From NCBI GenBank assembly GCA_041389865.1, contig JAWKRA010000004.1, positions 1-50,306 on the forward strand: a DNA stretch of 50,306 nucleotides. The letters run 5' to 3'. A program made the translations under genes and the position numbers. The notes under the pieces are model-generated. The model searched no databases. It was given only the letters and a program-made list of their open reading frames with translations, and was not told where the DNA came from. The DNA is from Nannocystaceae bacterium (GTDB lineage Bacteria; Myxococcota_A; Polyangia; Nannocystales; Nannocystaceae). Below are positions 903-41,046 of the stretch, piece after piece. How positions within the stretch are numbered: the first letter of the stretch is position 1; each line of letters opens with the position of its first letter.

Positions 903-1652
903 TCAGGTCGAGCCCACCGGCAGCGCGCGCGGCTGCTTCTCGAGCAGGAAGCGGACCGCGCGATCGAGCACGCCGGGGCGCCACTGCAGGAAGCTGTGGG
1001 CGCCGTAGACCATCTCGGGCTTGGGCGCGCCCGGGAGCTCCGTCTCCGAGACACCGACGAGCCCGTCGTTGTTCTCGGGGATCCAGCGGGCGTAGCCGCG
1101 GGGCTCCTCGTCGCCGACGGGCCGCTTGCCGCCAGCGAGGATGAGCACCTCCGCCGACGCCGGCGCGCGCGGGAGGTCGCGGACCCGCTCGCGCGAGAGC
1201 TCGGTCGCCGCCTTGCCGTACAGCCAGTGAAACGGGCGCAGCGATCCGAACCGCTCGGCCAGGTGCGCGCCGCGGTTAGGCGGCGCCAGCATCACGACGC
1301 GCTGGTGGTGCGACTGCGCCCGCGCCCGCTCGCTCGCCAGGTAGGCCCGCGCGACCAGCCCGCCCATGCTGTGGGTCAGGAAGCCCAGCACCGGCCACGC
1401 CGGCGCGCCCGCGCGCCAGCGATCGAGGAAGTCGGCGAGCCGATCGGCGTGCTCCTCGAGGGTGCCGGCGCGGGTCGGGTAGCCGAAGGTCCGCGCCTCG
1501 AGGCCGTAGAGACGCAGCGCCCAGGCCGTCGGCAGCAGGCCCATCCGCGAGCGCAGCGCGCCGTGGATCAACACGACCGGCAGCGCGCGCTCGGTCACCC
1601 CGCAGGCTCCTGCGACGCCTCGCGCCCCGGGGTCCACGGTCCGCCGCGCCAC
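903..1652 (-). CDS. alpha/beta-hydrolase fold esterase/lipase-like protein
   Basis: LIHGAL...GxSxG nucleophile elbow (HSMGG) and a later acidic/His region. It overlaps the lgt stop by 58 nt, so the true start is probably an internal GTG (VTERALPVVLIHG). Confidence 0.55.
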   Translation of the reverse strand: MARRTVDPGARGVAGACGVTERALPVVLIHGALRSRMGLLPTAWALRLYGLEARTFGYPTRAGTLEEHADRLADFLDRWRAGAPAWPVLGFLTHSMGGLVARAYLASERARAQSHHQRVVMLAPPNRGAHLAERFGSLRPFHWLYGKAATELSRERVRDLPRAPASAEVLILAGGKRPVGDEEPRGYARWIPENNDGLVGVSETELPGAPKPEMVYGAHSFLQWRPGVLDRAVRFLLEKQPRALPVGST

Positions 1653-2506
1653 TGCTGCAGATCTTCACGGCGCGCGCGGCTGTCCCGGAGCTGGTAGGCG
1701 ATCGCCAGGATCAAGCACAGCCCCAGCGCCGAGACCATCGACGTCCGCAGCGGCCCCAGCAGGTCGGGGACCGCGTCGTAGCGCAGCGGCTCCTCGACGA
1801 TCATCCGCGCGATCACGTAGAGCCCGAAGACCGCGAAGAACACCTGCCCCGAGAACCGGCGACGCCTTCGGAGCCACAGCGCGACGAGCAGCGTGATGAC
1901 GGCCATGCCCGCGGCGTAGAGCTGGGTCGGATGCACCGGCGCCGAGGCCACGTCGGAGACCGCGTCCATGCCGTCGAGCGTCACGCGGTGGAACCGGTAC
2001 ACAGGCGTCCCTGCGGGGTAGCGGACCGCGAGGTCGTAGCCGACATCGCGCGGCCCGACGTAGGCGCCGAAGTCCGCGCCGGCCAGGAACGCGCCGATCC
2101 GCTCGATGATGACCCCGACCGAGAACGCCGGCGCGCCGCAGTCCATCACCGCGAACCACGGCAGGCGAGCGCGCGCGCAGTAGATCGCGCTCGCCACGAG
2201 CGCGCAGAAGATTCCGCCGACCACCGAGAGCCCGCCCGCCGGCAGCGCGATGAGCCGCGACCACTCCATCGGCGTCGGCTGCTGCAGCATCCAGTGGGCG
2301 CGGCCGCCGAGGATGCCGGCGACGATCGAGACCACGTAGAGGGTGCCGACGCGATCGGTCGGCAGCAGATCCGCGCGCGCGAGCCGGAGGGTGACGTACC
2401 AGCCGAGCAGCAGCGCGAGGCCCATCAGCGCGCCGTAGGCCTGCACCTCCCAGCCGGCGCCAGGGACAGTAAAGAGCGTTGGGTGCACGGGCCCTGGGAG
2501 TACCAC
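1595..2506 (-). CDS. lgt: prolipoprotein diacylglyceryl transferase
   Basis: Polytopic membrane protein with the Lgt signature HPTQLY (APVHPTQLYAAG) and a conserved N-terminal HPTLF...YG.MxxLG region. Confidence 0.8.
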   Translation of the reverse strand: MVLPGPVHPTLFTVPGAGWEVQAYGALMGLALLLGWYVTLRLARADLLPTDRVGTLYVVSIVAGILGGRAHWMLQQPTPMEWSRLIALPAGGLSVVGGIFCALVASAIYCARARLPWFAVMDCGAPAFSVGVIIERIGAFLAGADFGAYVGPRDVGYDLAVRYPAGTPVYRFHRVTLDGMDAVSDVASAPVHPTQLYAAGMAVITLLVALWLRRRRRFSGQVFFAVFGLYVIARMIVEEPLRYDAVPDLLGPLRTSMVSALGLCLILAIAYQLRDSRARREDLQQWRGGPWTPGREASQEPAG

Positions 2507-2549: not shown

Positions 2550-2921
2550 TCAGTCGGCGTAGACCGCCTCCTCCTTCTCCTGGGCCTCCTTGCACTGAAT
2601 GCACAGCGGGGCCTCGGGCCGGGCCGCGAGCCGCTTCTGCGAGATCGGCTCGTCGCACTCCTCGCAGATGCCGAAGGTGCCCTCGTCGATCTTGCGCAGC
2701 GCGAGCTCGATCTTGTCCATCAGGAAGCGCTCGCGGCCGCGGAGCCGAAACGAGAACGCCTGCATGTACTCGCTCGAGGCCTGGTCGACCTCGTCGAAGC
2801 GGTCGTCTGGGGACAGGATCATCTCGGACTCGAGGGTCTTCTGGGCCGCGTCAAACAGGATGCGGCGCTTCTCCTCGAGGATCTTGCGGAACTTCTCAAG
2901 CTGAGTCTTGTTCAGGGCCAT
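2550..2921 (-). CDS. dksA: DksA/TraR-family RNA-polymerase-binding C4 zinc-finger protein (124 aa from the internal Met)
   Basis: MALNKTQLEKFRKILEEKRR..., coiled-coil tip DEVDQAS (DxxDxA) and C-terminal CEECDEPI...CIQC zinc finger. The upstream 71 codons of the ORF are Arg/Pro/Ser junk. Confidence 0.75.
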   Translation of the reverse strand: MALNKTQLEKFRKILEEKRRILFDAAQKTLESEMILSPDDRFDEVDQASSEYMQAFSFRLRGRERFLMDKIELALRKIDEGTFGICEECDEPISQKRLAARPEAPLCIQCKEAQEKEEAVYAD

Positions 2922-3009
2922 CGTCGCGAACGCGTCCTTTTTGAACACCCGCTCGGCCTCGCCGAAGTCGCCGTGGACGGGGCTAGGGAAGGTATCGCAG
3001 TCCGCGGGA

Positions 3010-3951
3010 TCAGGTAAACACCCCTTGCACGAAGAACGCGAGCAGCTCATCGGCGACGGCCTCGATGTCGGTGAGCGCCGCGGACGGCCGGGTCGGCCCT
3101 GGGGTCGCCGACGTCGACGATGCAGGGCGATCACGCGCAGGGGCCGCGTCGATCGCAGCGGCCCGTCGCGCCTCGAGCATTCTTCGAAGGATCTCGCGCA
3201 GCGCCCCCAGGGCGCTCACCGCAATGATGTGACGATCGCAGCGCCGCGCGATCCCGAGCGCGTGCCCGACCTCGACGGCGCGCTCGATCAGCGCGACCAC
3301 CTGATCGAGGAACAGCTCAACTTGCGCGCGCGTCTCCGGGTCAAACGACGCCGGGTCGCGCAGCATGATGTCGGCGAGATCGGAGTCCTCGACGACCACC
3401 GCCATCACTCGGCGGAAGTTCGCGCGCATCTGCTCGAGCGGCTCGCCGTCAGCGGGGTCGAGCGAGATCCTGCGGACGCTGCCGCGGATCCGCTCGAGGA
3501 ACGACTCGCACAGCTCGGCCAGCAGCTCGCGGCGGTTTTGGAAGTAGAGGTAGAAGGTCCCGCGAGCGATCGCGGCGGCGTCGATGATGTCGCGGGTCGA
3601 GGCCGCGTGATAGCCCTTCTCGCGAAACACCCGCTTGGCCGCGCGGAGGATCGCGTCGCGCCGCTGTCGCCTCCGCCGCTGGGCTCGCGACGCGCGGCCG
3701 TCGGTGACCTCGTCGTCGTCATCGCCCGCGATCTCTTCGAACGACGACGATCGTTCGCGCTCGTCCTCGTCACCGATCGTTGCCACAGCACCGGATTCGC
3801 CCGGCTCGCTGCGCGCCTCCGGGCGACGCGCCGCGTCGCGCTCGTCGGAGTCGCCCGCTCGCTCCGAATCGCGCGCCTCTCCTTGCCCTGCACAGGTCGT
3901 CTCCGAGCGCGCATCTGCGAGCTGTGACGAGTCGTGTCGGTTGACAGGCAA
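3010..3951 (-). CDS. TetR/AcrR-family transcriptional regulator with a long, very acidic N-terminal extension
   Basis: HTH region RRDAILRAAKRVFREKGYHAASTRDIIDAAAIARGTFYLYFQNRREL. The first ~95 aa (DEDERERSSSFEEIAGDDDDEVTD) are low-complexity acidic. The start is uncertain and may be an internal non-ATG codon. Confidence 0.65.
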   Translation of the reverse strand: MPVNRHDSSQLADARSETTCAGQGEARDSERAGDSDERDAARRPEARSEPGESGAVATIGDEDERERSSSFEEIAGDDDDEVTDGRASRAQRRRRQRRDAILRAAKRVFREKGYHAASTRDIIDAAAIARGTFYLYFQNRRELLAELCESFLERIRGSVRRISLDPADGEPLEQMRANFRRVMAVVVEDSDLADIMLRDPASFDPETRAQVELFLDQVVALIERAVEVGHALGIARRCDRHIIAVSALGALREILRRMLEARRAAAIDAAPARDRPASSTSATPGPTRPSAALTDIEAVADELLAFFVQGVFT

Positions 3952-4343: not shown

Positions 4344-5252
4344 ATGGAACCAGGCACGCAAGACTCCCTGATCGAGCGCCCGGACGGCGCGCAGCTGCGG
4401 GTCATCCAGATGGGACAGCCGCTCGCGGAGGGCGGCCTCGCAATCCTCATCCTCGACGGCATCGGCTGCTCTGGCTGGGCGTTCGAACGGATCCTGCCGA
4501 CGCTCGCCGCCGAGTTCCCGGTGATCTTCGTGCACCATCGCGGCCACGGCGGCGCCCCCACGCCGCCGCGTCCGTGGGCGCTCGACATGGCGGTGCTGGC
4601 CGATGACGCCGCCGCGATCGTCACCCAGCTGGGCGCGGGGCGGGTCGTCGCGGTCGGCTTCTCGATGGGCTTTCAGGTCGCGCTCGAGCTGTGTCGACGA
4701 CACCCAACGCTGGTCGCCGGGCTCGTCTCGATCGCCGGCGCCGGCGGCCGCGTGCTCGACAACTTCCTGCGCACCAAGGCCTTCAGCTTCGTGCTCCCGG
4801 TGCTCACGCTCTCGGCCCGCGTCGCCGGCGAGTGGACCCAGAAGGTCTGGAAGACGCTGACGCGCTCGACCCTCGCCCACGAGATCGCGCTGCGCTTCCA
4901 GGTCAACGCCGACGTCCTGAACCCCGCTGACCTCGACCTCTACGCGCGCCAGATCTCGCAGGTCGACCCCGAGCTCTTCATCGAGCTCCTGGCCGCCGCC
5001 CACCGCCACGACGCCGCCGACCTGTTCCCGCGGATCGACATACCGACCCGCGTCCTCGCCGGCGCGCGCGACTCGTTCGTCCCGCTCGAGACCCAGCGCG
5101 CGATGGCGTTTGCGATCCCCGACGTGCAGTGGCGGGTGTTCCCCGAGGCGACCCACGCGCTCCCGGCCGAGTTCCCTGAGCGGGTCTCCGCCGAGCTCCT
5201 CGACCTCGTCCGCGAGGTCGCCGGGCGCAAGGCGCTCGCGTCGGCGACCTGA
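4344..5252 (+). CDS. alpha/beta-hydrolase fold protein
   Basis: LILDGIGCSGWAFERIL..., nucleophile elbow GFSMGFQVALE (GxSxG), C-terminal His region (EATHALP). Confidence 0.7.
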   Translation: MEPGTQDSLIERPDGAQLRVIQMGQPLAEGGLAILILDGIGCSGWAFERILPTLAAEFPVIFVHHRGHGGAPTPPRPWALDMAVLADDAAAIVTQLGAGRVVAVGFSMGFQVALELCRRHPTLVAGLVSIAGAGGRVLDNFLRTKAFSFVLPVLTLSARVAGEWTQKVWKTLTRSTLAHEIALRFQVNADVLNPADLDLYARQISQVDPELFIELLAAAHRHDAADLFPRIDIPTRVLAGARDSFVPLETQRAMAFAIPDVQWRVFPEATHALPAEFPERVSAELLDLVREVAGRKALASAT

Positions 5253-5892: not shown

Positions 5893-6305
5893 ATCACGAG
5901 ACTCGCCGTCACCTGTCCCAAAGAACATATGATCACGACGCAGGCGGCGGCGCTCCACCGACGTGCATCCCTCGAATCGCGCCCGCGATCCCAGGCGGCA
6001 GCGTCGAATGGGGACCCGCAGCGGCGCTGCGTTCGGAGCGTGTCCGAGGACGGCGTTTCATGCCACCAGGCGCGTCGTGACCGAGGAGCCGAGACAACGG
6101 TGAGCGGGCTTTCCTTCGAGGCTTCGGCGACAAAGAGCGCGGCCTCCTGGTGGCGCGGGGCCTCGTGGGGAATCCTCGGACGCACTCCAAGGGGTCTCCC
6201 AACCTTCGAAGCGAGGGCATTCAAGGGTGCGGAGATTCAGGGCGGAAGAGGCGACGAGAGGCGACGGCGGGGTCTCCAGGCCTGGGGTGTTACCATCCGG
6301 CCCCA

Positions 6306-7286
6306 ATGGCTCCCTCGATCCCGCTACCATCTGTGCCCCCCGCGGTCGAGCGCATTGAACAATTGGCCCGACCTCATCGGGAATTCCGCGACTTCTGGTG
6401 GGTCGAGGGCGGCCCGCCGCTCTCCACGAAGCTGCGCTATCTGCTGCGCTACCAGTTCAAGCCCTATTACTTCGTGCGGCCGCCCGGATGGCGGGTGGCG
6501 CTGCGCGGCCTGAGCTGGAAGCAGCGCCCGCCGCCAGACTTCGCCTCCATCGGGGCGGTGCGCTCGGGCACCTCCGCGCTCTCCGAGTACATCTTCCAGC
6601 ACCCCAGCACCGTGCTGCCGCTGGCGAAGGAGCCCAACATCACCGTGCCGTGCGTCAAGCAGGTCTGCTCCTACTTCCCGACCCGGGCCGAGCGGGCGCG
6701 CGTGGCGAAGCGGTACGGCGTGGCCATCAGCGGCTACTGCACCCCCGTCGGGCCGCACCTGTCCTGGCCCTACCTGGCCCGGGGCGTGAACCCGAACATG
6801 AAGGTGGTGCTCATCCTGCGCGACCCGGTCAGCCGGGCGTTCTCCCAGTGGAAGTGGGATCGGATGAAGCGCAGCTGGTTCGCGCGCGACCCGTTCTGGT
6901 CGCAGATCCCCAGCTTCGAGCGGGTCTTCGAGATCGAGCGGATGGACATGGCGGAGGGCGGCGTGGGCTGGCCGACCCTGAGCGGGCTGAGCGGGCTGCT
7001 GCGCCAGAGCATCTACCTGCCCTTCCTCAAGGTCCTCACCGACGTCTGGGACGCCGACAAGCTGCTCATCCTCTGCGCCGAGGAGTTCTTCGCCGATCCG
7101 GTGGCCACCACGGAGCAGGTCTACGAGTTTCTGGGCCTGCCCCCCTGCACGCCCGAGCGGGTCGTCGAGCGCAACGCCGGCCCCCAGGAGTCCCTAGACC
7201 CCGCGCTGCGGGCACGCATGAGGGAGTTCTTCCAACCCTACAACGAGCGCCTCTACGAGTTCCTGGGTCGGGACCTGGGCTGGTGA
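6306..7286 (+). CDS. sulfotransferase-family protein
   Basis: PAPS 5'-phosphosulfate-binding-like motif GAVRSGTSAL and 3'-phosphate-binding-like LILRDPVSRAFSQW. Start taken at the internal Met (MAPSIPLPS). Confidence 0.6.
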   Translation: MAPSIPLPSVPPAVERIEQLARPHREFRDFWWVEGGPPLSTKLRYLLRYQFKPYYFVRPPGWRVALRGLSWKQRPPPDFASIGAVRSGTSALSEYIFQHPSTVLPLAKEPNITVPCVKQVCSYFPTRAERARVAKRYGVAISGYCTPVGPHLSWPYLARGVNPNMKVVLILRDPVSRAFSQWKWDRMKRSWFARDPFWSQIPSFERVFEIERMDMAEGGVGWPTLSGLSGLLRQSIYLPFLKVLTDVWDADKLLILCAEEFFADPVATTEQVYEFLGLPPCTPERVVERNAGPQESLDPALRARMREFFQPYNERLYEFLGRDLGW

Positions 7287-7381
7287 GCCGCTCCCGCCGG
7301 CGGCCGGTGCCCGCGCGATCTGGCTGTTGCTGCGCCGCCCCGACCGAGGCCCGCCGCGTGGCGCTTGGTGGCGCCGCCGCT

Positions 7382-7548
7382 CGCTCCTTGCCCGAAGTAC
7401 AGCCCGGTCCATCGACGCTTCGGCGCCTCGATCACGACGCTCCTGGCGGCACAGCCCGCCGCCCGGAGTCCTCGGACTCGCTCCTTGCCCGAAGTACAGC
7501 CCCGTACATCGACGCTTCGGCGCCTCGATACGACCTCCTGGCGGCGCC
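7382..7548. repeat. two copies of a ~68-bp extragenic element (period 100 bp) in a convergent intergenic region
   Basis: TCGCTCCTTGCCCGAAGTACAGCCCGGTCCATCGACGCTTCGGCGCCTCGATCACGACGCTCCTGGCGGC at 7382-7450 and a near-identical copy at 7482-7548 (3-4 mismatches). Each holds an internal inverted repeat CCGAAG...CTTCGG. Confidence 0.7.
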
Positions 7549-7599
7549 GCCCGGGGCCCTCGTACACGCGCTGCGCGTCGCGGTGGTCGCCGAAGGTCG

Positions 7600-8775
7600 T
7601 CACGCCGCGCTGGGCCTGACGCGCTCGCGCTCCGCCCGCGCGGATCGGAGGCGCGCGCGGAAGCGGCGGAGCTCCGCGGCGTACTCCGAGCGCGAACGCC
7701 TCGCCAACGCTCGTATCCGGCGTGGACGCAGCACGACGACCCGCGCGGGCGTGGTCGCAGCGCAGGTGCTGCCGTGGCGGCCGCGGGTCTCGAGCAGCGC
7801 GGTCTCGCCGGCGCAGCAGCCCGCGCCCCCCTCCCCGAGCAGGCCCCCCTCGCGGGTGAACTGCACGCGGCCGTCGACGACGACATACAGATCCTTGGCG
7901 ACGAAGCCCTCGTGGAGCAGCTTGTCGCCCGCGTCGAGCTCGAGGAGGACCCCCTCGCGCGCGAGCTGGCGGAGCGCGGGTCTCGACATGCCCTGCACGA
8001 CGGAGCCGGGCACGAGCGCCAGCCGCTCGATCGCCGCGCGCACCTTCGACGGGTCGCGCACGACCTTGCGATCCGCGGCCATGTGGGCGCGAATCGTGGC
8101 GATCCACGGACCCCCCTGGGGGACGCCCGCGCGCCGCATCGCGCGGACGATCGGGCTGCCGCGGCGCTCGATCTCCGCGAGGTCCCCCGCCAGTCCGAGG
8201 ATTGACACCTCGAGCCCGCGGGTACCTCCCACCAATCGGCCGCCGTGCGCGTCGAAGCCGAGCATGTGATAGCGACGCAGCAGCCCGGGCGCCGAGATTG
8301 CGAACCACACGTCGACGGGGCGCTCGCGCATGGCGGCGACGAGCGCGTTGACGAGCATCGCTCCCGCCGCGTTAGTGCCGCGCAGGCGGGGCTCAATCAT
8401 CACCATCTTGATGTCGCCGACCGTCAGACGATCGACCTCGGGGAGCAGGTCAAGGGAGTGAAAGCGTACGACCTCGGCGGGCGCCTCGCCCGGCCCCCAC
8501 ACGCGGAGGCGCACCGTCCCGAGCGGTCGTCCGGGATCGCCGAGGTAGTAGATCCGCGTGGCCGGATCTTCGTCGATCTCGCTGCAGACGCGCCGGCGCT
8601 TCATGTCGACCTCGGGGTGATCGAGGTTGGACTGCTCCTGCGCGTAGACCCGGTAGCGCAGGCGATAGATCGCCTCGCGCTCGCGGGCGGTCGTGGCGAG
8701 GCGCGCCCGATAGCGGCGGCAGATCAGCTCGTCAAACAGGAGGCCCCTGAGCTTGGTACGTACGATCGATAGCAC
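7600..8775 (-). CDS. two-domain protein: N-terminal GNAT-like N-acyltransferase (N-acyl amino acid synthase/FeeM-like) fused to a C-terminal cyclic-nucleotide-binding (cNMP) domain
   Basis: The N-terminus (AIYRLRYRVYAQEQ...YYLGDPGRPLGTVRL...MLGF) matches the autoinducer/N-acyl amino acid synthase GNAT pattern. The C-terminus (LLELDAGDKLLHEGFVAKDLYVVVDGRVQF...GEGGAGCCAGETALLETRGRHGSTCAAT) matches a Crp-type cNMP-binding fold. Confidence 0.6.
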   Translation of the reverse strand: MLSIVRTKLRGLLFDELICRRYRARLATTAREREAIYRLRYRVYAQEQSNLDHPEVDMKRRRVCSEIDEDPATRIYYLGDPGRPLGTVRLRVWGPGEAPAEVVRFHSLDLLPEVDRLTVGDIKMVMIEPRLRGTNAAGAMLVNALVAAMRERPVDVWFAISAPGLLRRYHMLGFDAHGGRLVGGTRGLEVSILGLAGDLAEIERRGSPIVRAMRRAGVPQGGPWIATIRAHMAADRKVVRDPSKVRAAIERLALVPGSVVQGMSRPALRQLAREGVLLELDAGDKLLHEGFVAKDLYVVVDGRVQFTREGGLLGEGGAGCCAGETALLETRGRHGSTCAATTPARVVVLRPRRIRALARRSRSEYAAELRRFRARLRSARAERERVRPSAA

Positions 8776-9587
8776 GGTTCACCTGCGTGGAGGGTGGAGG
8801 CACCAGCAACCTATCGAAATGTGCGCCGGAGATACAGTGGGGCCGCCATCGACGATGCCTGCGATGGCGGATGAATCGAGCGCGCGTCACGACGCCGTGC
8901 TCGCCCGACGACTCACCAGACTTTGAGGGAGTACACGCCTTCGTCTCCGGGCGAGAGCATGTCGGGATATTTCGCGCGGCCCCAGCTACCCTCACGAATG
9001 TCGTGATCCTCTACAACGTGGAGCTCGATCTCGCGAAGGTGGAGGAGGCGCTCGCGACCTGCGAGCAGGCGGCGTGCGGCACGTACAGCATCTGCCTCGG
9101 CCCGAGGCTTCTACCTCCACGGCGAGGTGGTCAACGAGCTCACGTGCTCGTCGTAGGGCTGCGACGCGAGCTCTCGAGCTGCCCCTTCGAGGCACCGAGG
9201 CCGCTCGAGGGTCGTCGCGCGGCACCGTCGCGACGCAGGGCGCGTCGAGGCACGCGGCGACCCGCGTCCGTGGCCCGCAGGGCCGCTGCGCGGAGGCCCT
9301 CGAGCCCGTCGCTGCCCGTGACCACGCGGGTCTCCCGAGCCAGCGTCGACGCAGACGTCGGCTCGCGCAGCACCGCTTCGATGACGAGGAGGTCGCCGCG
9401 TTCAACGCATGACCGATCGGACATGCACTAGAAGACATTGGTCTTCGCGCGCGGCCGCCCCCTTCGTCCCCGCGCCTCGCGCGAGCGGCCCTTGCGACGC
9501 GAGCGCGCACGCGCGTTCGCCCCGAGCGCGTGACCAGAGCGCCGCGGGAGCTCATCATGAGCCGTCGGTTCGCCGACAGCTCGCGCC

Positions 9588-10127
9588 ATGTCCACCTACA
9601 CCGACGAAACCGTTGACGATCCCGAGAGCCCGCCCTCGATCGCACCGTACGCGGACACGGTCCAGCACCCCGGGGTCGAGACGCCGGGCGCCCCGACGAT
9701 GCGCGCGCGCGTCGATCGCTACATCGTCCTGTCGCTGCTGGGCGCCGGCGCGATGGGGGTCGTCTACGCCGCCTACGATCCCGAGCTCGACCGCAAGGTC
9801 GCGCTGAAGCTCGTCAAGCAGCGCGACGACGCCAGCGGCCGGAGCCAGGACCGACTGCAACGCGAGGCCCAGGCGCTCGCCAGGCTCGACCATCGCAACG
9901 TGGTCCGCGTCTACGACGTCGGCGTGCACGAGGCGCAGCTCTTTATTGCGATGGAGTTCGTCGCCGGACGAACGCTCCGCGCGTGGCTGAAGGACGACCC
10001 TCCGCACCCGTGGCGAGCGCAGCTGCGCACGTTCATCGCCGCCGGTCACGGGCTCGCGGGGGCGCACGCGGCCGGCCTGGTGCATCGCGACTTCAAGCCC
10101 GACAATTTTGCAGTGGGAGGAGTCTAG
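9588..10127 (+). pseudogene. truncated Hanks-type Ser/Thr protein kinase (subdomains I-VIb only)
   Basis: LGAGAMGVVYAAYD (Gly loop), VALKLV (Lys), catalytic loop HRDFKPDNF, then a stop 5 codons later. No DFG/APE subdomains follow in any frame. Downstream sequence drops in GC and carries palindromes. Confidence 0.6.
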
Positions 10128-11596: not shown

Positions 11597-12229
11597 ATGG
11601 AGATCGACTTGAGCGCGCCACGAGGCGAGCGTCACGAACCCGGGCTCTCTCAGGAGGCTTCGACGCTGCTCGCCCGCCACAGGGATGAGCTCCTCGCGTT
11701 CATCGAATCGCGAGTCAGAGACCGGGCGCTCGCGGAGGACGTGCTGCACGCCGCGTACGTGCGGGCGCTCGAGAAGGGCTGCCTCGTCCACGACGACGAG
11801 CGGACGCTCGCTTGGTTTCGTCGGGTGCTCCGCAACCTCGGCGTCGATCTGCTGCGACGACGCGACGCCGGTCGCCGGGCGGTCGAGCTGTGGAGTCGAG
11901 ATATTGAGCGATGCACGCCTGGCCTCGACCGCGGCGACTCTCGAGACCCATGCCAGTGCGTCGAAGAGCAGCTCCCGCGCTTGCGATCCTCGTACGAGGT
12001 GGTCCTTCGCCGCGTCGCCTGGAACAGGGAGGCGATCGCCACCATCGCCTGTGATCTCGGCGTGAGCGCGAACACCGTCCGCGTACGCCTCCACCGCGCA
12101 CGCGCGGCGATGCGTCGATCCCTGCTCGCGGTCTGTGGCGCCGGCGCGCCCGGGCGCTGCTCGGACTGCCGCTGTAGCGAGTCGATGACCAGCGTCGAGG
12201 CGCCTGCGGCCGCCCCTCACCGGCGCTGA
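11597..12229 (+). CDS. ECF sigma-70 factor with C-terminal cysteine-rich extension (CorE-like, ECF44-type)
   Basis: Sigma-2 (LLAFIESRVRDRALAEDVLHAAYVRA) and sigma-4 (VVLRRVAWNREAIATIACDLGVSANTVRVRLHRARAAMR) regions, a linker CQC, and a tail CGAGAPGRCSDCRCSE. Confidence 0.7.
   Translation: MEIDLSAPRGERHEPGLSQEASTLLARHRDELLAFIESRVRDRALAEDVLHAAYVRALEKGCLVHDDERTLAWFRRVLRNLGVDLLRRRDAGRRAVELWSRDIERCTPGLDRGDSRDPCQCVEEQLPRLRSSYEVVLRRVAWNREAIATIACDLGVSANTVRVRLHRARAAMRRSLLAVCGAGAPGRCSDCRCSESMTSVEAPAAAPHRR

Positions 12230-12815: not shown

Positions 12816-12819
<4 letters not shown>
12238..12819 (-). CDS. two-TM K+-channel-like protein (Ion_trans_2) with selectivity filter TVGYGD
   Basis: ITITTVGYGDFTPVT between two hydrophobic helices. 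Its start codon overlaps the cusA stop (ATGA), so it is translationally coupled to the RND pump. Confidence 0.6.
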
Positions 12820-16676
<3,857 letters not shown>

Positions 16677-16682
16677 GTACGA

Positions 16683-18737
16683 TCAATGATGGTGGCCCGC
16701 GGCCGCGGCCGGAGGGGGCGGCGCGGAGTCGCCGACGCGAACGGTGAGCCGCTCACGCGGCAGCACCGTCCCCCGGAACTCGCCGCAGCGCAGCATCGCG
16801 GCGCCGTAGTAGGGGTTTCGCAGCACCTCGTCGCGCTGGACCCATCGCGCGCCTCGGGAGTCGAACGCCATCGGGCAGTAGGCGACGCGCAGCGGGTCCT
16901 CGATCGGGTTCCCGAATTCCTCGAGCAGCCGCTCGAGCTGAACGCTGACGTGTTCGAACGCGCTGCGGACCTCGGCGATCGTCTCGGCCTGCGCGGCGTG
17001 TCTGGCGTGGCCGCCAAGCTCCGACGCGGTCTTCTGCCACGCCTCTCGCACCGTGCGCGCGCCCGGCGGATCGAGCTCGTTGACCACGGCCGCGAGGCCC
17101 TCGAGGGAGCTTCGGGCGTCCGTGAGATCATCGGCCGCGAGCCGCTCCTGTCCCTCGAGATAGGCGAGAACCGCCGGCGCGATGGTCTCGAGGAACGCGG
17201 GCGTGACCGCCAAGGCGGGCCGCTCGTCGTCCGCTCGGTCGTCGCCGAGCGTCATCATGCTGCGTCCGCCGGAGAGCTGCAGATCGGCGTCGAGCAGGAA
17301 GGTCCCCCGGGTGACCACCCGCTCGCCCTCGTTCAACCCCGCGAGCACAGGGTAAACGGGGCCCGCCTTAGGCCCCAGTCGAACCTCGCGCAGCTCGTAG
17401 GTCGGGCGCTCGGCGTCGGGGACCTCGACGTAGACGACCGAGCGTCGCCCCGTGAACATCGGCGCGGTGCTGGCGACGACGAGCTGACTCTTGGATTTTT
17501 CGGCGCCCGCGTGGATCACCGCGGACGCGAACATCCCTGGTCGAAGCTGGCCGTCGCGGTTCTTGACCTCGACGCGGACCCGGGCCGTACGACTGCGCTT
17601 GTCGACGACGGGATCAATGAACCCGACCTTGCCGACAAAGACCTGTCCGGGGACAGCCTCGACGGTCAGCTCGACCTCCTGGCCGACGTGCAGGTGCGCG
17701 AGGTCGGACTCGTAGGCGTCGATTTGCACCCAGACCTCGGAGAGGTCGGCGACGCTGTACAGGGGCGCGCCAGGGGTCACGTACTGACCCTCCTCGACGT
17801 GTCGCTCGAGCACGGTGCCGCCGAACGGGGCGTGGATGTCGACGTGCTTGGGCGCCTCGCCGGTGCGCTCGATGCTCTCGATCACCTTGTCGGAGACGCC
17901 CAGGAGGCGCAGTCGCGTGCGCGTGGCCTCGAGCGTCGACGCGCCCAGGCCGGCGGCGCCGTGCAGCCCCTTGCTGAGCTTCTTGGCCTGCGACGCCGCG
18001 AGCACGAGCTCCCGCGTCGCCGTGTAGATCTCGGGGCTGTACAGCTTGGCGACGACGCGGTTCTTGGCGATCCGCGTGCCGGTCGTGCGCACCAGCAGGC
18101 GGTCGATGCGGCCGCCCGTCCACGGCGTGATGGTGCGCAGCCGCGACTCATCATGATCGACGCGGCCGAGCAGCCTGATCTCGGCGCGCGGCTCGGTGCG
18201 CGTGACCGGCTCGGTCTCGACCTGCGCGAGCGCGCGGGCGCGAGGAGAGAGCGACACCTGCCCGCGGTGCTCCACGTGGTCCGAACCATCTGAGGCCTTC
18301 ATCGTCGCTGGTATCAGCTCCATCCCGCAGATCGGGCACGAGCCCGGCTCGTTCATGCGGATCTGCGGGTGCATGGAGCAGGTCCAAACCTGCTGCGCTG
18401 CGGGCTCGGTGACGTGGTCGGCGTGCTCGCCAGCCGCGGGCGCAAGAGGCTCCGCTCCGAAGCGCGATCCGAGGAACAGGCCTACGGCCAGCGCCGTGAG
18501 CAGGCTAACCGAGCTCCCCGCGATCCGCAGCCCGAGCGCCGCCGGCCCGCGGCGCGCTGGCGCGTCTCTGTACACGCGCTCCAGCAATCGGTCGCGCCAA
18601 CGATGAGACCCGCGCGCACCTGTAGCGGCGCGCGGCTCATCGAGCGTCGACGTGTCCGTCTCACGCGGCATGGCGTGATCCACCTCGTGCTCATCGGCTG
18701 GGTTAGGCGCTTCGGGACCCGTGTTCGTGTCGTTCAT
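16683..18737 (-). CDS. cusB: CusB-like RND periplasmic adaptor (membrane fusion protein) with N-terminal heavy-metal-binding domain and C-terminal DUF3347
   Basis: WTCSMHPQIRMNEPGSCPICGMEL (HMBD), biotinyl/lipoyl-like plus beta-barrel MFP core, C-terminal AYCPMAFDSRGARWVQ (DUF3347 signature). Six-bp gap to cusA. Confidence 0.8.
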   Translation of the reverse strand: MNDTNTGPEAPNPADEHEVDHAMPRETDTSTLDEPRAATGARGSHRWRDRLLERVYRDAPARRGPAALGLRIAGSSVSLLTALAVGLFLGSRFGAEPLAPAAGEHADHVTEPAAQQVWTCSMHPQIRMNEPGSCPICGMELIPATMKASDGSDHVEHRGQVSLSPRARALAQVETEPVTRTEPRAEIRLLGRVDHDESRLRTITPWTGGRIDRLLVRTTGTRIAKNRVVAKLYSPEIYTATRELVLAASQAKKLSKGLHGAAGLGASTLEATRTRLRLLGVSDKVIESIERTGEAPKHVDIHAPFGGTVLERHVEEGQYVTPGAPLYSVADLSEVWVQIDAYESDLAHLHVGQEVELTVEAVPGQVFVGKVGFIDPVVDKRSRTARVRVEVKNRDGQLRPGMFASAVIHAGAEKSKSQLVVASTAPMFTGRRSVVYVEVPDAERPTYELREVRLGPKAGPVYPVLAGLNEGERVVTRGTFLLDADLQLSGGRSMMTLGDDRADDERPALAVTPAFLETIAPAVLAYLEGQERLAADDLTDARSSLEGLAAVVNELDPPGARTVREAWQKTASELGGHARHAAQAETIAEVRSAFEHVSVQLERLLEEFGNPIEDPLRVAYCPMAFDSRGARWVQRDEVLRNPYYGAAMLRCGEFRGTVLPRERLTVRVGDSAPPPPAAAAGHHH

Positions 18738-20161
18738 CGCAACTCCTTGGATGCCCGGACCGGGCGGCCGACGACCTGCTCGAGCTCAGCCCAGGCGATC
18801 GCCGCGTCGACGCGGGCGCGCAGCGCCATCAGCCGCAGGTCAAGCAGCTCGCGCTCCGCCATCAACACCTCGACCACGCTCGCGCGGCCGCTCTGGTAGC
18901 TGGCCTGGACGGCCTCGTAGGACGTCTCGGCCAGCGGGATCATCGTTGTGTCGTAGAGCGCGACCCGGCGGTCCGCGTCGCGCAACCTCGCCATCACGCG
19001 TTCGAAGTCCTCGACGGCGTGGTTGCGAGCGGCGAGCTCACGCGCGCGAAACATCCGCGAGCGGGCTCGCGCCTCATCCTCGCCGGCGCTGTAGGAGCCG
19101 AACGAGAGCGGCACCTTGATGGCCGCCATGCCCATGACCGCGTCCTTGCCAGAGTCGGGCATCGTGGGATCAGCGGCCGGTCCGGTGATGATCCAATCGA
19201 CGCCCAGGCCAAAGCTCGGGAACCGATCGGCTCGTGACTGCCGGACGCGCTGGTCGCTCGACTCGGACATCAGCGCCAGCGCCCGCACGCGTGGGTGCGA
19301 GGTGGCGGCGAGCCGCAGCGAATCGTCGTCCTCGCCCGGGACTCCGATCCGCGGCGTCGCGGTGTCGATCGGGGTCGCAGCGCCATCGGGCGCGCCCACC
19401 ACCCGCACGAGCGCGGCCGCGGCGGTCCGCGCGTCCTCGTCGAGCGCGGCGAGGTGGTCCTCGGCGCGGGTGACCCGGAGGTTGATCTGCGTGAGGTCAG
19501 AGAGAGCGGCCGCGCTGGCCTCGACGCGGACGCGCACGAACTCGGCGACGGTCTGCAAGAGCGAGAGCTGCTCGGCCTCGACCTCGCGCGTGCGCTTGAT
19601 CAGCCACAGGCGCCAGTACACCGCCGACACCTCGGCCGCGATCCGGAGCGCGTGGGCTTCGAATTCGCGCTGGGCAGCCCGCGCGGCCAGGGCCTCCGCC
19701 TCACTCGCGGCGGTGAGCTTCGTCGGCCATGGGAACCACTGCTGGAGCCCGAGCTTGTGGCGCTGCGGGCCGACGCGCGTCTCGACGCTGCGGATGAACC
19801 CCGCGTACGAGATCATCACCTCGGGGAGCCGACGAACCATGCGCGGCCGATAGGTCGCGGCCCGCCACGCTTCGAAGCTAGCCCGCAGCTCCGGACTGTG
19901 CTCGAACGCGTACTGCTGGTAGCGCAGCAGCGTCCCGTCGAACGACGCGGTCGACGGCGTCGGCTGCTGCGCTGCGCCATCGTCGACGGGGCGAGCAGGC
20001 AGCGGGGCGAGCTGACGCTCGACACGCGCCGCGTCGCGTCGCGTCGCGCGTTCGACGGTGCCGGCGCACGCAGGGCCAGCGCTCGCGAGCGCGGCGGCCA
20101 GCAGGGGCCAGGGAAAGACCGTCCGCCCCGCTCGAGCGGACGTCGGTTGTTTGGATGACAT
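18734..20161 (-). CDS. cusC: TolC/CusC-family outer-membrane efflux protein
   Basis: Start taken at the internal Met (MSSKQPTSARAG) with a signal peptide. Two TolC-like repeats. The 4-bp overlap with the cusB start indicates a cusCBA operon. Confidence 0.75.
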   Translation of the reverse strand: MSSKQPTSARAGRTVFPWPLLAAALASAGPACAGTVERATRRDAARVERQLAPLPARPVDDGAAQQPTPSTASFDGTLLRYQQYAFEHSPELRASFEAWRAATYRPRMVRRLPEVMISYAGFIRSVETRVGPQRHKLGLQQWFPWPTKLTAASEAEALAARAAQREFEAHALRIAAEVSAVYWRLWLIKRTREVEAEQLSLLQTVAEFVRVRVEASAAALSDLTQINLRVTRAEDHLAALDEDARTAAAALVRVVGAPDGAATPIDTATPRIGVPGEDDDSLRLAATSHPRVRALALMSESSDQRVRQSRADRFPSFGLGVDWIITGPAADPTMPDSGKDAVMGMAAIKVPLSFGSYSAGEDEARARSRMFRARELAARNHAVEDFERVMARLRDADRRVALYDTTMIPLAETSYEAVQASYQSGRASVVEVLMAERELLDLRLMALRARVDAAIAWAELEQVVGRPVRASKELR

Positions 20162-20249
20162 GGAAGAACCTGTTCCTCGCGCTGTGATGCTCTCAAGACC
20201 CCACGCCGCCCGCGTACACGAGGGCGGCGACAGCTCAAGCGCGGCTGGT

Positions 20250-20654
20250 TCACAGCAAGTAGGAGCAGTTCTGCTTGTAGAGGCCCACGCGGTCTGGTGG
20301 ACCTCGTGCCCGAGCGCGCGCGAACGAGGCGCGCGCGACCGGACGGGCCAATGGCGCTGTGTGTCGGACGTGAGACACCCGCGCGACCGACGGGGACGGC
20401 TCTGGATCGTCGAGCACAGCCGACGGCGCGCCCGCGCGGGACATGTCCGAAGAGCAACACGGCTCACGCTGGACGGAGGCCGCCTCGCGCCCCTCCGGGT
20501 CGCGGTGCTTGCAGCAGCAGCACGACTCCACCGCTGTGGTCGGGCACGCGCGCGTCGGCGTGCCTGGCAGCGTGAGGGCGATCGCCATCAGCACGCCGAG
20601 CAGACGAGCCCACCACGGCGTCGTGCCTCTCGCTCGGCTCGCGGCGTCGCTCAC
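20250..20654 (-). CDS. candidate small secreted Cys-rich protein (CCCC motif) directly upstream of cusC
   Basis: N-terminus MSDAASRARGTTPWWARLLGVLMAIALTLPGT looks like a signal peptide, followed by ACPTTAVESCCCCKHRDPEG...PCCSSD. High GC3 in the first ~80 codons. The C-terminal third is low-complexity, so its extent is uncertain. Confidence 0.3.
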   Translation of the reverse strand: MSDAASRARGTTPWWARLLGVLMAIALTLPGTPTRACPTTAVESCCCCKHRDPEGREAASVQREPCCSSDMSRAGAPSAVLDDPEPSPSVARVSHVRHTAPLARPVARASFARARARGPPDRVGLYKQNCSYLL

Positions 20655-34466: not shown

Positions 34467-35846
34467 TCAACGCGTACGAGCGGCCGAGGGCAGTCGACCC
34501 CCGACCCAGTACTCGAGCTGCGCGCGCGCGATCCAGTAGTCGCGCAGCGCCTCGGCGTACTCCTGCTGCGCGTGGACCTGCTCCGAGCGGGTCGAGAAGA
34601 GCTCGTACGCGCCGACCAGCATGCCGTTGTACTCGCGGAGGGTCTGCTCGTAGATCTGCTCGTGCCGCGGGAGGACGGCGGTCCGCATGTAGTCGACGCG
34701 ACGCCGGGCAGCGACGAGCGCCGCGCGACCCTCTCGCATCTGCGAGCGCGCGACGATGGCCGCGTGCTGGTAGAGGTGCTGCGCCTGACGAAGCTGCGCG
34801 CGCAGCTTGGCGAGGTCGGCGTGCCCAGGATCGAAGAGCGGCAGCTCGACTTGCAGGGACGGGCCGACGACCCACTCGTGACCGATGTCATCGCCCACCT
34901 CGTTGCGCCCTTCGACGCCCACGTCGATGTTCGGAACGATCCCCCGCCGCCGCAGCGCGAGCGCGTAGTCCACCGCGTCGACGTGAAACCGCGCCGCCGA
35001 CACGTCGAGCCGCTCGCGGATCCCGTGCTGCTCGAGCGCCGAAAGGTCGCCGTCGGCGGGCATCTCGGGGGACGCGGCCGCCATCGTCCAGCGCGTGTCA
35101 TCGCCCCAGAGCCCCATCAAGCGGTTGATCTGCTCGCGCGCGCTGACGACTTCGAGCTCGCGCTCGAGCAGCGTCATGCGGGCCTCGTCGAGGGCTGCTG
35201 CGACCTCGGCTCGCTGCAGCGGGCTGATGTTCCCGGCCTCGCGCTGCCGCGTCGCCAGCTCGTCGGCGACCTCGGCCGCCTGCACCCGCTCGCGCTGCAG
35301 ACGCGCGACCGTGACGGCCGCGGCCAGCTCGGCGTAGGCGACCTTGACGTCGCGGACCAACGTGAGCGCCTCGCCGCCGACGGTGAGGATCGTGCGCTGG
35401 AGCGCGGCCTTGGCCACGCGCCGCTTGGCGGGGATCAGGAACACGCTCAGGAGGCTCTGGGAGAGGGACACCCCGCCGCCGAGGCCGTTTCCGCGGGTCG
35501 AGATCAGCAGGTCTCCGCCGATCGTGGGGTTTTGCAGCAAGCCGGCCTGCACCAAGTCCGACTGCGCGACGCCGAGCTCCTCCATGGTCGCAAGCAGGCC
35601 GCGGTTGTTGATCACAGCGATGCGCAGGGCTGCCTCGAGGGTCAGGGGCTCGGCCAGGAGCGTCTCTACGCGCGCGCGCACCTCCGCGTGGCTGCGGGCC
35701 TCGGCCGCGACAGCGTCGTCGATGCCAGCGCGCTCCTCGAGCACCGCGGAGACCTCGGCGGCCGCCGCCGTGGGTCGGGTCGTCGCGCAGCCCGAGAGCG
35801 CGAGCGCGAGCGCGGCGATCGTCGTCTTGAGGAAGGCTCGCATCAC
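34467..35846 (-). CDS. TolC-family outer-membrane efflux lipoprotein
   Basis: Lipobox ALSGC. Two OEP repeats with conserved LTLEAALRIAVINNRGL... pattern. Confidence 0.75.
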   Translation of the reverse strand: MMRAFLKTTIAALALALSGCATTRPTAAAAEVSAVLEERAGIDDAVAAEARSHAEVRARVETLLAEPLTLEAALRIAVINNRGLLATMEELGVAQSDLVQAGLLQNPTIGGDLLISTRGNGLGGGVSLSQSLLSVFLIPAKRRVAKAALQRTILTVGGEALTLVRDVKVAYAELAAAVTVARLQRERVQAAEVADELATRQREAGNISPLQRAEVAAALDEARMTLLERELEVVSAREQINRLMGLWGDDTRWTMAAASPEMPADGDLSALEQHGIRERLDVSAARFHVDAVDYALALRRRGIVPNIDVGVEGRNEVGDDIGHEWVVGPSLQVELPLFDPGHADLAKLRAQLRQAQHLYQHAAIVARSQMREGRAALVAARRRVDYMRTAVLPRHEQIYEQTLREYNGMLVGAYELFSTRSEQVHAQQEYAEALRDYWIARAQLEYWVGGRLPSAARTR

Positions 35847-36160
35847 TGCCCTCCCTTCGGCGCGCCGTGACCCGCGTGCTCGTCCGTGGTCGTCGCGTCG
35901 GCGGCGGGCTTCGTGGCGTCACGTTCGGCGGCTCCGTGACCGCCGTGATGGTGGTGGCCGTGACCCGCGTGGCCGCCTTCGTCGAGCGCGACCCCCTCGA
36001 ACGCCGAGCGCTCGGTCGGATCGGGACCTGGCTGCCACGCGCTCGCTGGTGCGTCGGGGTTGCCGGCGTCGCGCTCGGGCGGCAGCGGCTCGAGGCCAGG
36101 CGCGCGGCACCCAGCTACAAGGATCACCATCAGCAGCAACACTCTACAGAAGGATGCCAT
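35843..36160 (-). CDS. small His-rich lipoprotein (putative periplasmic metal-binding)
   Basis: Lipobox LVAGC, then HAGHGHHHHGGHG and HAGHG clusters. ATGA-type overlaps with both neighbours. Confidence 0.5.
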   Translation of the reverse strand: MASFCRVLLLMVILVAGCRAPGLEPLPPERDAGNPDAPASAWQPGPDPTERSAFEGVALDEGGHAGHGHHHHGGHGAAERDATKPAADATTTDEHAGHGAPKGGQ

Positions 36161-40277: not shown

Positions 40278-40840
40278 TGAGCGCGTCCGCAACCTCCGAT
40301 GTCGCCCAGGTGCTGGTCGAGAACCATCGCCACTTCCTCCGCTTCCTCGAGCGGCGGGTCGCCACGCGCGAGGCCGCCGAGGACATCCTGCAGTCGGCGC
40401 TCGCCCGCGGGATCGAGCGCAGCGGGGAGCTGCGCGATGAGGAACGCAGCGTCGCGTGGTTCTACCGGCTCCTGCGCAACGCGCTCATCGACCACTATCG
40501 CCACCAGGACGCCGAGCGTCGGGCGCTCTCACGCCACCTGGCCGAAGAGGTGGCCCGTGGCGACGCGGACCTGGCGCTCGAGCAAGCCGTCTGTCAGTGC
40601 TTTAGGGCGCTGGTGGACACGCTGACTCCGGCGTACGCCGACGTCCTCCGCGCCGTCGACCTCGGCGAGGTCTCGATCGCCGACTATGCGGCGGGTGCGG
40701 CCATCACCGCCAACAACGCCCGAGTCCGCCTGCACCGCGCGCGCGCGGCCCTGCGCAAGAGCCTCGAGCGCATGTGCGGCACTTGTACGACGCACGGGTG
40801 CCTCGACTGCTCGTGCAAGTCCGCGTGTAGCTCGACGTGA
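40278..40840 (+). CDS. ECF sigma-70 factor with C-terminal cysteine-rich domain (CorE-like)
   Basis: Sigma-2 and sigma-4 regions, a linker CQC, and a tail CGTCTTHGCLDCSCKSAC. Sits between the Cu-ATPase and a multicopper oxidase. Confidence 0.75.
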
Positions 40841-41046
40841 GTTGGTGGCCCGACCTCGGCGGGTTCGCTACCGGCTCCGATAGTGTCGCCGACGAGCCCG
40901 CGGCCGGGCGAGCGTTGGCGCCGACGAGGGTCCCCTTGGCACCCCCTCCGGAGTATCGCCGTTTACCCCGGGGAGAGACCGGATCCTTCAACACCCCCCG
41001 CTTCGGCCCGCGCTCGGATACGCTATTCGATTGGGAGACACCCACC

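Follow-up and report, generated by a model that had tools for sequence, protein, structure and literature searches.

The stretch analysed here, called the window, comprises 50,306 nucleotides of contig JAWKRA010000004.1 from a Nannocystaceae bacterium (assembly GCA_041389865.1). On its reverse strand, the open reading frame (ORF) at 7600-8775 encodes a protein that joins a GNAT N-acyltransferase domain of the FeeM/LuxI type to a cyclic-nucleotide-binding (CNB) domain. In the following, this FeeM-CNB protein is examined for the nature of its two domains, for the state of its phosphate-binding cassette (PBC) and for the family to which it belongs. At the family level, the data point to a synthase for N-acyl amino acids that is regulated by cyclic nucleotide monophosphates (cNMPs); in the window copy, the sensor would have degenerated.

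The FeeM-CNB gene and its two domains

The ORF at 7600-8775 is a real gene for a two-domain fusion. Its composition is of the coding type, with GC contents of 0.89 at third (GC3) and 0.52 at second (GC2) codon positions in a genome of about 70 % GC. A database entry (P0001) identical (100 %) to the window protein is named 'cyclic nucleotide-binding domain-containing protein [Nannocystaceae bacterium]' and comes from a metagenome-assembled genome (MAG). A second contig, from GCA_020431275.1, carries an identical protein. Other orthologs in the database share 76 % identity (P0002, from a Polyangia MAG) or 51-56 %. The initial annotation, made from the letters alone, had proposed the fusion of a GNAT domain resembling N-acyl amino acid synthases with a Crp-type CNB domain and had quoted one motif for each. 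Both motifs are found, with RYRVYAQEQ spanning aa 40-48 and GETALLETRGRHGSTCAA spanning aa 323-340, and the fusion holds, both domain assignments being supported by sequence and by fold. The parts of the gene are listed in Table 1.

The FeeM-like character of the N-terminal part is borne out by a match to the Pfam FeeM family PF21926 over aa 35-179 (E=5.4e-10, 39.7 bits for a gathering cutoff of 27) and by FeeM being the top fold match. Fold comparison places the domain in the FeeM/LuxI subtype of the GNAT fold, and in a search with its profile BjaI and TofI come up at E=3e-5, the conserved R/E/D/D/R positions falling in register. Where a CoA P-loop would ordinarily follow the pattern Q/R-x-x-G-x-G/A, the window protein reads R130-L-R-G-T-N-A-A-G; within this region, R132-G133 are the only family-conserved residues. 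Lack of the canonical CoA P-loop has been described as typical of GNATs that depend on a carrier protein, FeeM among them (PMC11685415).

More specialised profiles were also considered. Pfam Autoind_synth (PF00765), to which the initial annotation had pointed, gave no match at E<=1 in the window protein. With the NCBIfam OlsB model NF052554, the window protein scored 15.1 bits against a cutoff of 350, and its relatives scored at most 36 bits; weak similarity to OlsB and to Acetyltransf_5 (PF13444) is found in many family members. TIGR03694, the PEP-CTERM/exosortase-associated N-acyl amino acid synthase, reached 19.8 bits against a cutoff of 112, over aa 23-51 only, and the NCBIfam Pat model NF058543 reached 13.1 bits against 460. 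As judged from these profiles, no curated subfamily claims the window protein, and its membership is that of the FeeM family at the Pfam level.

In an alignment of 132 members of the fusion family described below, the column of S161 holds the Cys of a motif F-x-x-C-x-P-G-L in 102 members (~77 %); Ser, Ala or Gly replaces it in the Nannocystaceae clade. The near-invariant residues of the family are all kept in the window GNAT domain, P191 excepted, and the change at P191, like several other deviations, is common to other members of this clade rather than restricted to the window copy. From its sequence, the window acyltransferase domain looks intact and functional.

A helical linker connects the two domains. 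In the AlphaFold2 (AF2) model it contains helices at 199-204, 210-215, 224-235 and 242-249, and in the family alignment D198 is kept in 126/132 members and S207 in 110/132. The C-terminal domain is recognized by Pfam cNMP_binding (PF00027) over aa 279-360 (E=7.3e-10, 39.1 bits, cutoff 27.5). Besides this hidden Markov model match, it shows the eight-stranded beta-roll fold, with fold matches including 6SYG, 6FTF and 2Z69. The Crp-type CNB domain of the initial annotation is thus confirmed at the level of profile and fold.

A recurring family and its cassette in soil relatives

A word-indexed search retrieved seven clusters only, all Nannocystaceae/Enhygromyxa-like and each with both domains. 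When 1.84 billion representatives were searched exhaustively with a HMMER profile, 115 proteins matched at E<1e-30. Lengths fall between 340 and 460 aa in 125 of the best 150 matches, and most of those listed are aligned without interruption between residues ~15 and ~370. The two-domain layout is common to the aligned members, G323 being present in 131/132 and R40 in 125/132. Relatives with precomputed Pfam assignments all have PF21926, and all except P0168 and P0169 have PF00027. Their names in the source databases are given at domain level only ('CRP-like cAMP-binding protein', 'predicted GNAT family N-acyltransferase'). The sources are nearly all metagenomes, with the addition of one Alphaproteobacteria MAG. 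A clade-specific pattern scan of genome contigs gave only two loci, so that taxonomy beyond Nannocystaceae/Polyangia and this single MAG is thin. From these searches, the FeeM-CNB fusion is a widespread, recurring family and no one-off, and curated families do not include it. In the literature on FeeM or N-acyl amino acid synthases together with cyclic nucleotides, no relevant paper was found, and none describing the fusion. In some members a third domain is added: a SAM methyltransferase fused N-terminally (P0053, P0121) or C-terminally (P0147), a C-terminal class I/II aminotransferase (P0057) or a C-terminal GGDEF domain (P0061).

A metagenome scan with a sub-alignment gathered 80 loci. They belong to one subclade and share 43-77 % identity with P0163, and the four of these soil loci that were measured have GC contents of ~0.70-0.73. 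A cassette with a defined order recurs in them (loci L017-L085; for example L043, 4001-12865, and L039, 41-4010): a gene fusing an oxidase (FDO) part to ThiF, then FeeM-CNB, then a CNB-NTE_Ploop-patatin gene, often followed by a class III cyclase with NB-ARC/TPR domains. The upstream FDO+ThiF gene (657-694 aa) overlaps the start codon of FeeM-CNB by 4 nt, in 48/56 loci. Its N-terminal part belongs to the nitroreductase superfamily as an FMN oxidase (NCBIfam Acg/Rv3131 family, E=3e-43) and its C-terminal part is ThiF (E=1e-24); a further match, with E=3e-43, is to 'Rv1355c family protein'. The downstream gene, a phospholipase of 608-615 aa, begins 5-29 nt past the FeeM-CNB stop codon. Counted over loci with enough flank, a ThiF gene lies directly upstream on the same strand in 48/56, the FDO part upstream in 40/46 and the patatin gene within 3 kb downstream in 46/53. 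A cyclase is found anywhere in the locus in 26/80, and in 11 of the 19 loci whose flanks reach 4 kb or more on each side.

The patatin gene is linked to FeeM-CNB in three ways: same-strand downstream, convergent and upstream. The persistence of this linkage through three rearrangements, down to 44 % identity, argues for functional coupling. In the subgroup at ~44 % identity (L088-L090, L093, L095), the convergent patatin protein has 737 aa and two CNB domains. In the distant member L095 (5369-9357), a divergent acyltransferase of the PlsC type (PF01553) is present as well, which recalls olsB/olsA aminolipid pairs.

The FDO+ThiF partner gives a clue to the chemistry. The FDO+ThiF enzymes OxzB, TyzB/TyzC and TrzS (Rv1355c) turn N-acyl amino acids into acyl-oxazolones, and these N-acyl amino acids are made by the FeeM-fold acyltransferases OxzA, TyzA and TrzA, the latter being Rv1356c (PMC10404671, PMC12856293, bioRxiv 10.1101/2020.06.11.147165). 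Since soil FeeM-CNB shares a cassette with an OxzB-like FDO+ThiF oxazolone synthetase, of the type that consumes N-acyl amino acids, it occupies the position of OxzA, and it travels with a second CNB enzyme and a cyclase. Together with the sensor domain, which in the family as a whole is predicted to be a canonical cNMP sensor (see below), this lends the family good, if indirect, support as one that makes N-acyl amino acids under the control of cNMPs.

Outside this subclade, no neighbour proved to be conserved when the window gene was compared with the eight other loci sampled first. Lipid-related neighbours do occur at some loci, namely a fatty-acid desaturase, an AAT amidase and a polyketide synthase of the polyunsaturated-fatty-acid type. 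In L005 (6800-7974) and L008 (3292-4469), an SDR/KR gene and an ORF of 116-119 aa without Pfam match stand immediately upstream of FeeM-CNB, and L008 also has CNB-patatin, Crp and cyclase genes nearby. The pair formed by the SDR gene and the small ORF was considered as a conserved operon and rejected: the L005 and L008 proteins are 79 % identical and the pair is present in 3/80 metagenome loci, which marks it as lineage-specific.

Altered sensor and orphan context of the window gene

Over the 132 aligned members, the consensus of the PBC is G-x-x-F-G-E-[VIM]-A-[FL]-[FL]-x3-4-G-x-R-[TS]-A-[ST]-V. The phosphate-binding Arg is found in 126/132, the next column holds Thr in 62 and Ser in 40 (102/132), and the one after it Ala in 110/132. 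The window cassette reads G-E-T-A-L-L-E-T-R-G-R-H-G-S-T. The Gly-Glu pair that contacts the ribose is present as G323-E324, and G319 and A326 are also conserved. What is missing is the phosphate-binding Arg and the Thr/Ser-Ala after it: His334 stands in the Arg column, Gly335 in the Thr/Ser column and Ser336 in the Ala column. HMMER independently pairs His334 with the Arg of the PycTIR motif 'KRSAT'. Only the window protein and P0002 have His in this column among the 132 aligned sequences. Since the change is present in two assemblies and in P0002, it is no sequencing error. Arg333, which precedes the His, is no obvious compensation, because the residue before the PBC Arg is often basic in the family (R in 43, K in 18) alongside the canonical Arg.

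Mutation of the PBC Arg in PKA, CAP, HCN or MloK1 cuts affinity by orders of magnitude, and CNB folds devoid of this Arg bind other ligands or none. With Arg-Thr/Ser replaced by His-Gly, the window domain has therefore probably lost classical cAMP/cGMP binding or retains it in weaker form. The initial annotation had placed the synthase under direct cAMP/cGMP control and had made this depend on the presence of the PBC, which turns out to be partly preserved: Gly-Glu is kept, Arg-Thr/Ser is not. The claim thus fares differently at the two levels. For the family, it is well supported by the canonical PBC Arg in 126/132 members and by the operon links. For this copy, it is weakened by His334-Gly335 and by the divergence of the CNB domain, and direct cAMP/cGMP control of the window protein appears doubtful from its sequence.

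This divergence is apparent from pairwise comparisons. Among the orthologs with a canonical PBC (P0003/4/5), the dN/dS ratio (omega) is 0.14-0.22 for the GNAT domain and 0.15-0.27 for the CNB domain, with identities of 85-89 % and 80-81 %, respectively. Between the window protein and P0002, omega is 0.20 for GNAT (85 % identity) and 0.39 for CNB (75 %). Between the two subclades, the values are 0.24-0.30 for GNAT (65-72 % identity) and 0.42-0.97 for CNB (41-46 %). Such estimates show a CNB domain that, in the window lineage, evolves faster than the GNAT domain, in a manner suggestive of relaxed or divergent evolution.

The window gene is a derived orphan, detached from the cassette partners of the other subclade. 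By tblastn, homologs of FDO, ThiF, patatin, cyclase and PlsC were found neither in the 50 kb window nor near the close relatives. No cyclase appeared among the window genes scanned with Pfam, and the soil-subclade cyclase used as a probe was also without match in the window. The convergent neighbour is a Sulfotransfer_1 protein, as the initial annotation had stated. However, the sulfated acyl products imagined from this neighbourhood find no support: the sulfotransferase is not co-transcribed with FeeM-CNB because the two genes are convergent, the gene that converges on P0002 is not similar to it, it is missing beside five relatives whose surroundings were examined, and none is listed in the contexts of the Enhygromyxa salina-type orthologs and other family members examined.

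On the other side, a gap separates the FeeM-CNB start from a divergent Ser/Thr kinase gene. No ORF with a Pfam match (8787-9431 gave none) and no sigma-70-like promoter match was found in it, and no gene is called in the corresponding stretch of L001, the other contig with an identical FeeM-CNB protein. A promoter and terminator scan of 7100-9700 returned nothing, a result that is uninformative for a myxobacterial genome of 70 % GC. The kinase gene ends in the middle of the catalytic loop, where HRDFKPDN is followed by FAVGGV and a stop codon (junction near 10108), and it covers 129/263 Pkinase positions. In L001, the kinase runs on normally, HRDFKPDNVMIGD, to the contig end. The break marks either the insertion of an island or a chimeric join in the window contig. 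From the break on, the stretch ~10100-44200 has a lower GC content (0.62-0.69 in several 2-kb windows) and looks like a copper/heavy-metal resistance island; a search for inverted repeats at its ends gave no convincing terminal repeats. Away from the island, core-type genes are found, with no obvious link to the acyltransferase.

Table 1. Positions of the FeeM-CNB gene, of its parts and of surrounding features in the window.
Feature	Position	Strand	Remarks
Whole FeeM-CNB gene, 391 aa + stop	7600-8775	-	GTG start at 8775, stop 7600-7602; ORF list
N-terminal helix, aa 1-21, ahead of catalytic domain	8713-8775	-	AF2 model of N-domain: helix 2-21, pLDDT (predicted local distance difference test) 82-88
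FeeM/LuxI-type GNAT N-acyltransferase domain, aa 22-196	8188-8712	-	
Helical linker, aa 197-254	8014-8187	-	opens with conserved D198...S207-P208 motif
CNB-fold domain, aa 255-385	7621-8013	-	
PBC region, aa 319-340	7756-7821	-	GCCAGETALLETRGRHGSTCAA; translation against family consensus
His334-Gly335 in place of canonical PBC Arg-Thr/Ser	7771-7776	-	translation, family alignment
Lgt	1595-2506	-	core-type
DksA-like zinc-finger protein	2550-3215	-	core-type
TetR regulator	3010-3951	-	core-type
Alpha/beta hydrolase	4344-5252	+	core-type
Sulfotransfer_1 protein	6150-7286	+	E=2.6e-11; convergent
Gap before divergent kinase gene	8776-9587		812 bp
Truncated Ser/Thr kinase	9588-10127	+	
ECF (extracytoplasmic function) sigma factor	11597-12229		
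CusA-like RND (resistance-nodulation-division) pump	12816-16676		
CusB-like HlyD with HMBD	16683-18737		
OEP outer-membrane factor	18734-20467		first of two
OEP outer-membrane factor	34467-35846		second of two
Multicopper oxidase	36144-37496		first of two
CopA-type P-type ATPase	37743-40145		
Multicopper oxidase	40837-42459		second of two
Cytochrome c	43035-44150		

Interpretation and comparison with known systems

Considering these properties, we favour, with moderate confidence, a soluble FeeM-type N-acyl amino acid synthase equipped with a CNB regulatory module, the sensor being degenerate in the window lineage and the GNAT domain intact. The GNAT domain, of the FeeM/OxzA/TyzA/LuxI type, most likely loads the alpha-amino group of an amino acid with a fatty acyl group taken from acyl-ACP (acyl carrier protein) or acyl-CoA. 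The product would be an N-acyl amino acid, acting as a lipid signal or as a lyso-aminolipid. The C-terminal CNB domain would be an allosteric module carried on the ~55-aa helical linker and, at the family level, it probably gates the acyltransferase, on the model of cAMP-activated MtPat (Rv0998). In the window lineage, that is in this MAG and in P0002, the CNB domain may have been retuned to another ligand or may act without ligand. A more elaborate version can be imagined for the soil cassette: a dedicated class III cyclase would switch on both the CNB-gated synthase, feeding the oxazolone synthetase, and the CNB-patatin, and the window sensor would have been retuned via His-Gly to a ligand other than cAMP or cGMP. 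Such a self-contained module, leading from second messenger to lipid signal, would be the first instance of a cyclic nucleotide acting allosterically and directly on the making of N-acyl amides or acyl-oxazolones. It is a tentative proposal, and as a whole we hold it to be rather doubtful.

Several observations weigh against the favoured reading. At family-conserved GNAT positions the Nannocystaceae clade departs from its relatives (E121D, R124M, C161S, R175D, Y177H, P191S), and from these deviations the substrate, and even the activity, may differ. The full-length AF2 model is poor (pLDDT 68; predicted TM score, pTM, 0.58), so that contacts between the domains are not readable. The omega values are simple Nei-Gojobori pairwise estimates made on DNA of 70 % GC from few sequences. 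At 0.39, omega of the CNB domain is still below 1, which means purifying selection. His334 is still able to hydrogen-bond a phosphate and Arg333 is adjacent, so that residual cNMP binding is conceivable. Finally, the 80 soil loci belong to one subclade of related organisms and their counts do not represent independent events.

The alternative closest to the initial annotation is that the window protein is a classical cAMP/cGMP-activated N-acyl amino acid synthase, in which the phosphate is held by Arg333 and/or His334. In its favour, the CNB fold is intact with G319, G323, E324 and A326 kept, an Arg directly precedes the His, the CNB domain is constrained and the remaining family looks cNMP-responsive. 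However, the canonical position is Arg in nearly all relatives and Arg333 brings no compensating novelty; moreover, the following Thr/Ser and Ala are also replaced, by Gly and Ser, divergence of the CNB domain from the canonical orthologs is accelerated, and neither the Pfam scan nor the soil-cyclase probe found a cyclase in the window. We therefore regard such a classical sensor as unlikely. A membrane role has somewhat less in its favour. In that case, the enzyme would perform the first step of an OlsB-like aminolipid pathway, its lyso-aminolipid being then O-acylated, and no diffusible signal would be made. The weak OlsB/Acetyltransf_5 similarity of many members, the PlsC-type acyltransferase beside L095, which recalls the olsB/olsA pairing (PMC11631085), and the patatin phospholipase linkage, which would suit lipid remodelling, all go in this direction. 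Yet OlsB scores of 15-36 bits are far from the cutoff of 350, L095 is the only locus with a PlsC homolog, none being seen in the window or near close relatives, and in the subclade with the best sampling the main partner is an oxazolone synthetase and not an O-acyltransferase. An aminolipid pathway thus seems improbable.

A LuxI-type synthase, using S-adenosylmethionine (SAM) to make an acyl-homoserine lactone (AHL) as quorum signal, is very unlikely: Autoind_synth does not match at E<=1, FeeM is both the top fold match and the assigned Pfam family, and the operon partner found in relatives requires N-acyl amino acids whose carboxylate is free. A cNMP-regulated protein lysine acyltransferase like mycobacterial Pat (Rv0998) would be still harder to reconcile with the reversed domain order, with a GNAT of the FeeM/LuxI subtype lacking the acetyl-CoA P-loop, with a Pat score of 13 bits against 460 and with neighbours and fusions that indicate small-molecule lipid chemistry. 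The best PDB and PADLOC matches of the CNB domain are sensor domains of PycTIR (8JSK, E=1.6e-4; PADLOC, E=8e-9), from which an effector of a Pycsar-like anti-phage system sensing cCMP or cUMP might be envisaged. This seems scarcely credible, as the similarity is confined to the CNB domain, the would-be effector domain is biosynthetic and not toxic, none of the contexts examined, that of the window included, has a PycC-type cyclase next to the gene, and the cyclases near the soil relatives are class III STAND-type regulators. Membership of the Pycsar, MtPat, LuxI, OlsB and TIGR03694 groups was accordingly rejected, each failing a defining test.

If the favoured reading is correct, a synthase with a degenerate sensor in one lineage and a canonical one in its relatives has consequences for lipid biology. 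N-acyl amino acids and acyl-oxazolones (tyrazolones, tryptazolones) have lately been recognised as lipids of bacteria, M. tuberculosis being one of their sources, and published work states that their function and triggers are unknown. An acyltransferase with its own cyclic-nucleotide sensor would provide a concrete regulatory input for them, and the case for regulation is strengthened in one subclade, where an oxazolone synthetase, a CNB-patatin lipase and a cyclase accompany the enzyme. The family would lengthen the very short list of biosynthetic enzymes gated directly by a CNB domain. The window copy would be a natural PBC mutant, whose contrast with the canonical orthologs would reveal the role of the sensor domain. 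The cassette at the family level is nevertheless a more exciting lead than the window copy itself.

Compared with known systems, the closest relative by fold is FeeM, a single-domain protein of ~190 aa with a dedicated ACP (FeeL). The window protein adds the linker and the CNB domain and has no adjacent ACP gene, and direct sequence similarity between the two is undetectable. The soil relatives resemble OxzA, TyzA and TrzA (P. rubra oxzAB; M. tuberculosis tyzACB and trzAS, Rv1356c-Rv1355c) in gene position. The fold of TyzA has been reported to resemble FeeM and BjaI (PMC10404671). Differences are clear, however: in the acyl-oxazolone pathways the FDO/ThiF partner lies beside the acyltransferase, whereas the window gene has none within 50 kb, and in the soil fusion FDO comes ahead of ThiF, the reverse of the order in Rv1355c. 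The papers describing the Oxz, Tyz and Trz pathways make no mention of a cyclic-nucleotide domain (PMC10404671, PMC12856293, bioRxiv 10.1101/2020.06.11.147165).

For the regulatory half, MtPat is the template for the proposed gating. To our knowledge, no protein other than MtPat and MsPat (Rv0998, MSMEG_5458) has been characterised in which a CNB domain exerts allosteric control over a GNAT fused to it. MtPat is an acetyl-CoA-dependent protein lysine acetyltransferase with a canonical P-loop and an N-terminal CNB domain; the window protein has the opposite order. In MtPat, cAMP relieves autoinhibition of the fused GNAT (PMC8556138). The LuxI family (LasI, TofI, BjaI, RpaI) has no CNB domain, and the window protein has neither an Autoind_synth match nor a sign of SAM use. 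In the CNB homology domain of KCNH channels, in trypanosome PKA-R and in CRP/FNR members such as CooA and Dnr, the CNB fold is kept and the phosphate-binding Arg is lost; several of these are among the fold matches of the window domain (6SYG, 6FTF, 2Z69). The window CNB domain resembles them in both respects, but these proteins are channels, kinase regulators and transcription factors, whereas the window CNB domain sits on a biosynthetic acyltransferase. The window protein would work in the manner of a FeeM/OxzA-type synthase with a regulatory logic like that of MtPat.

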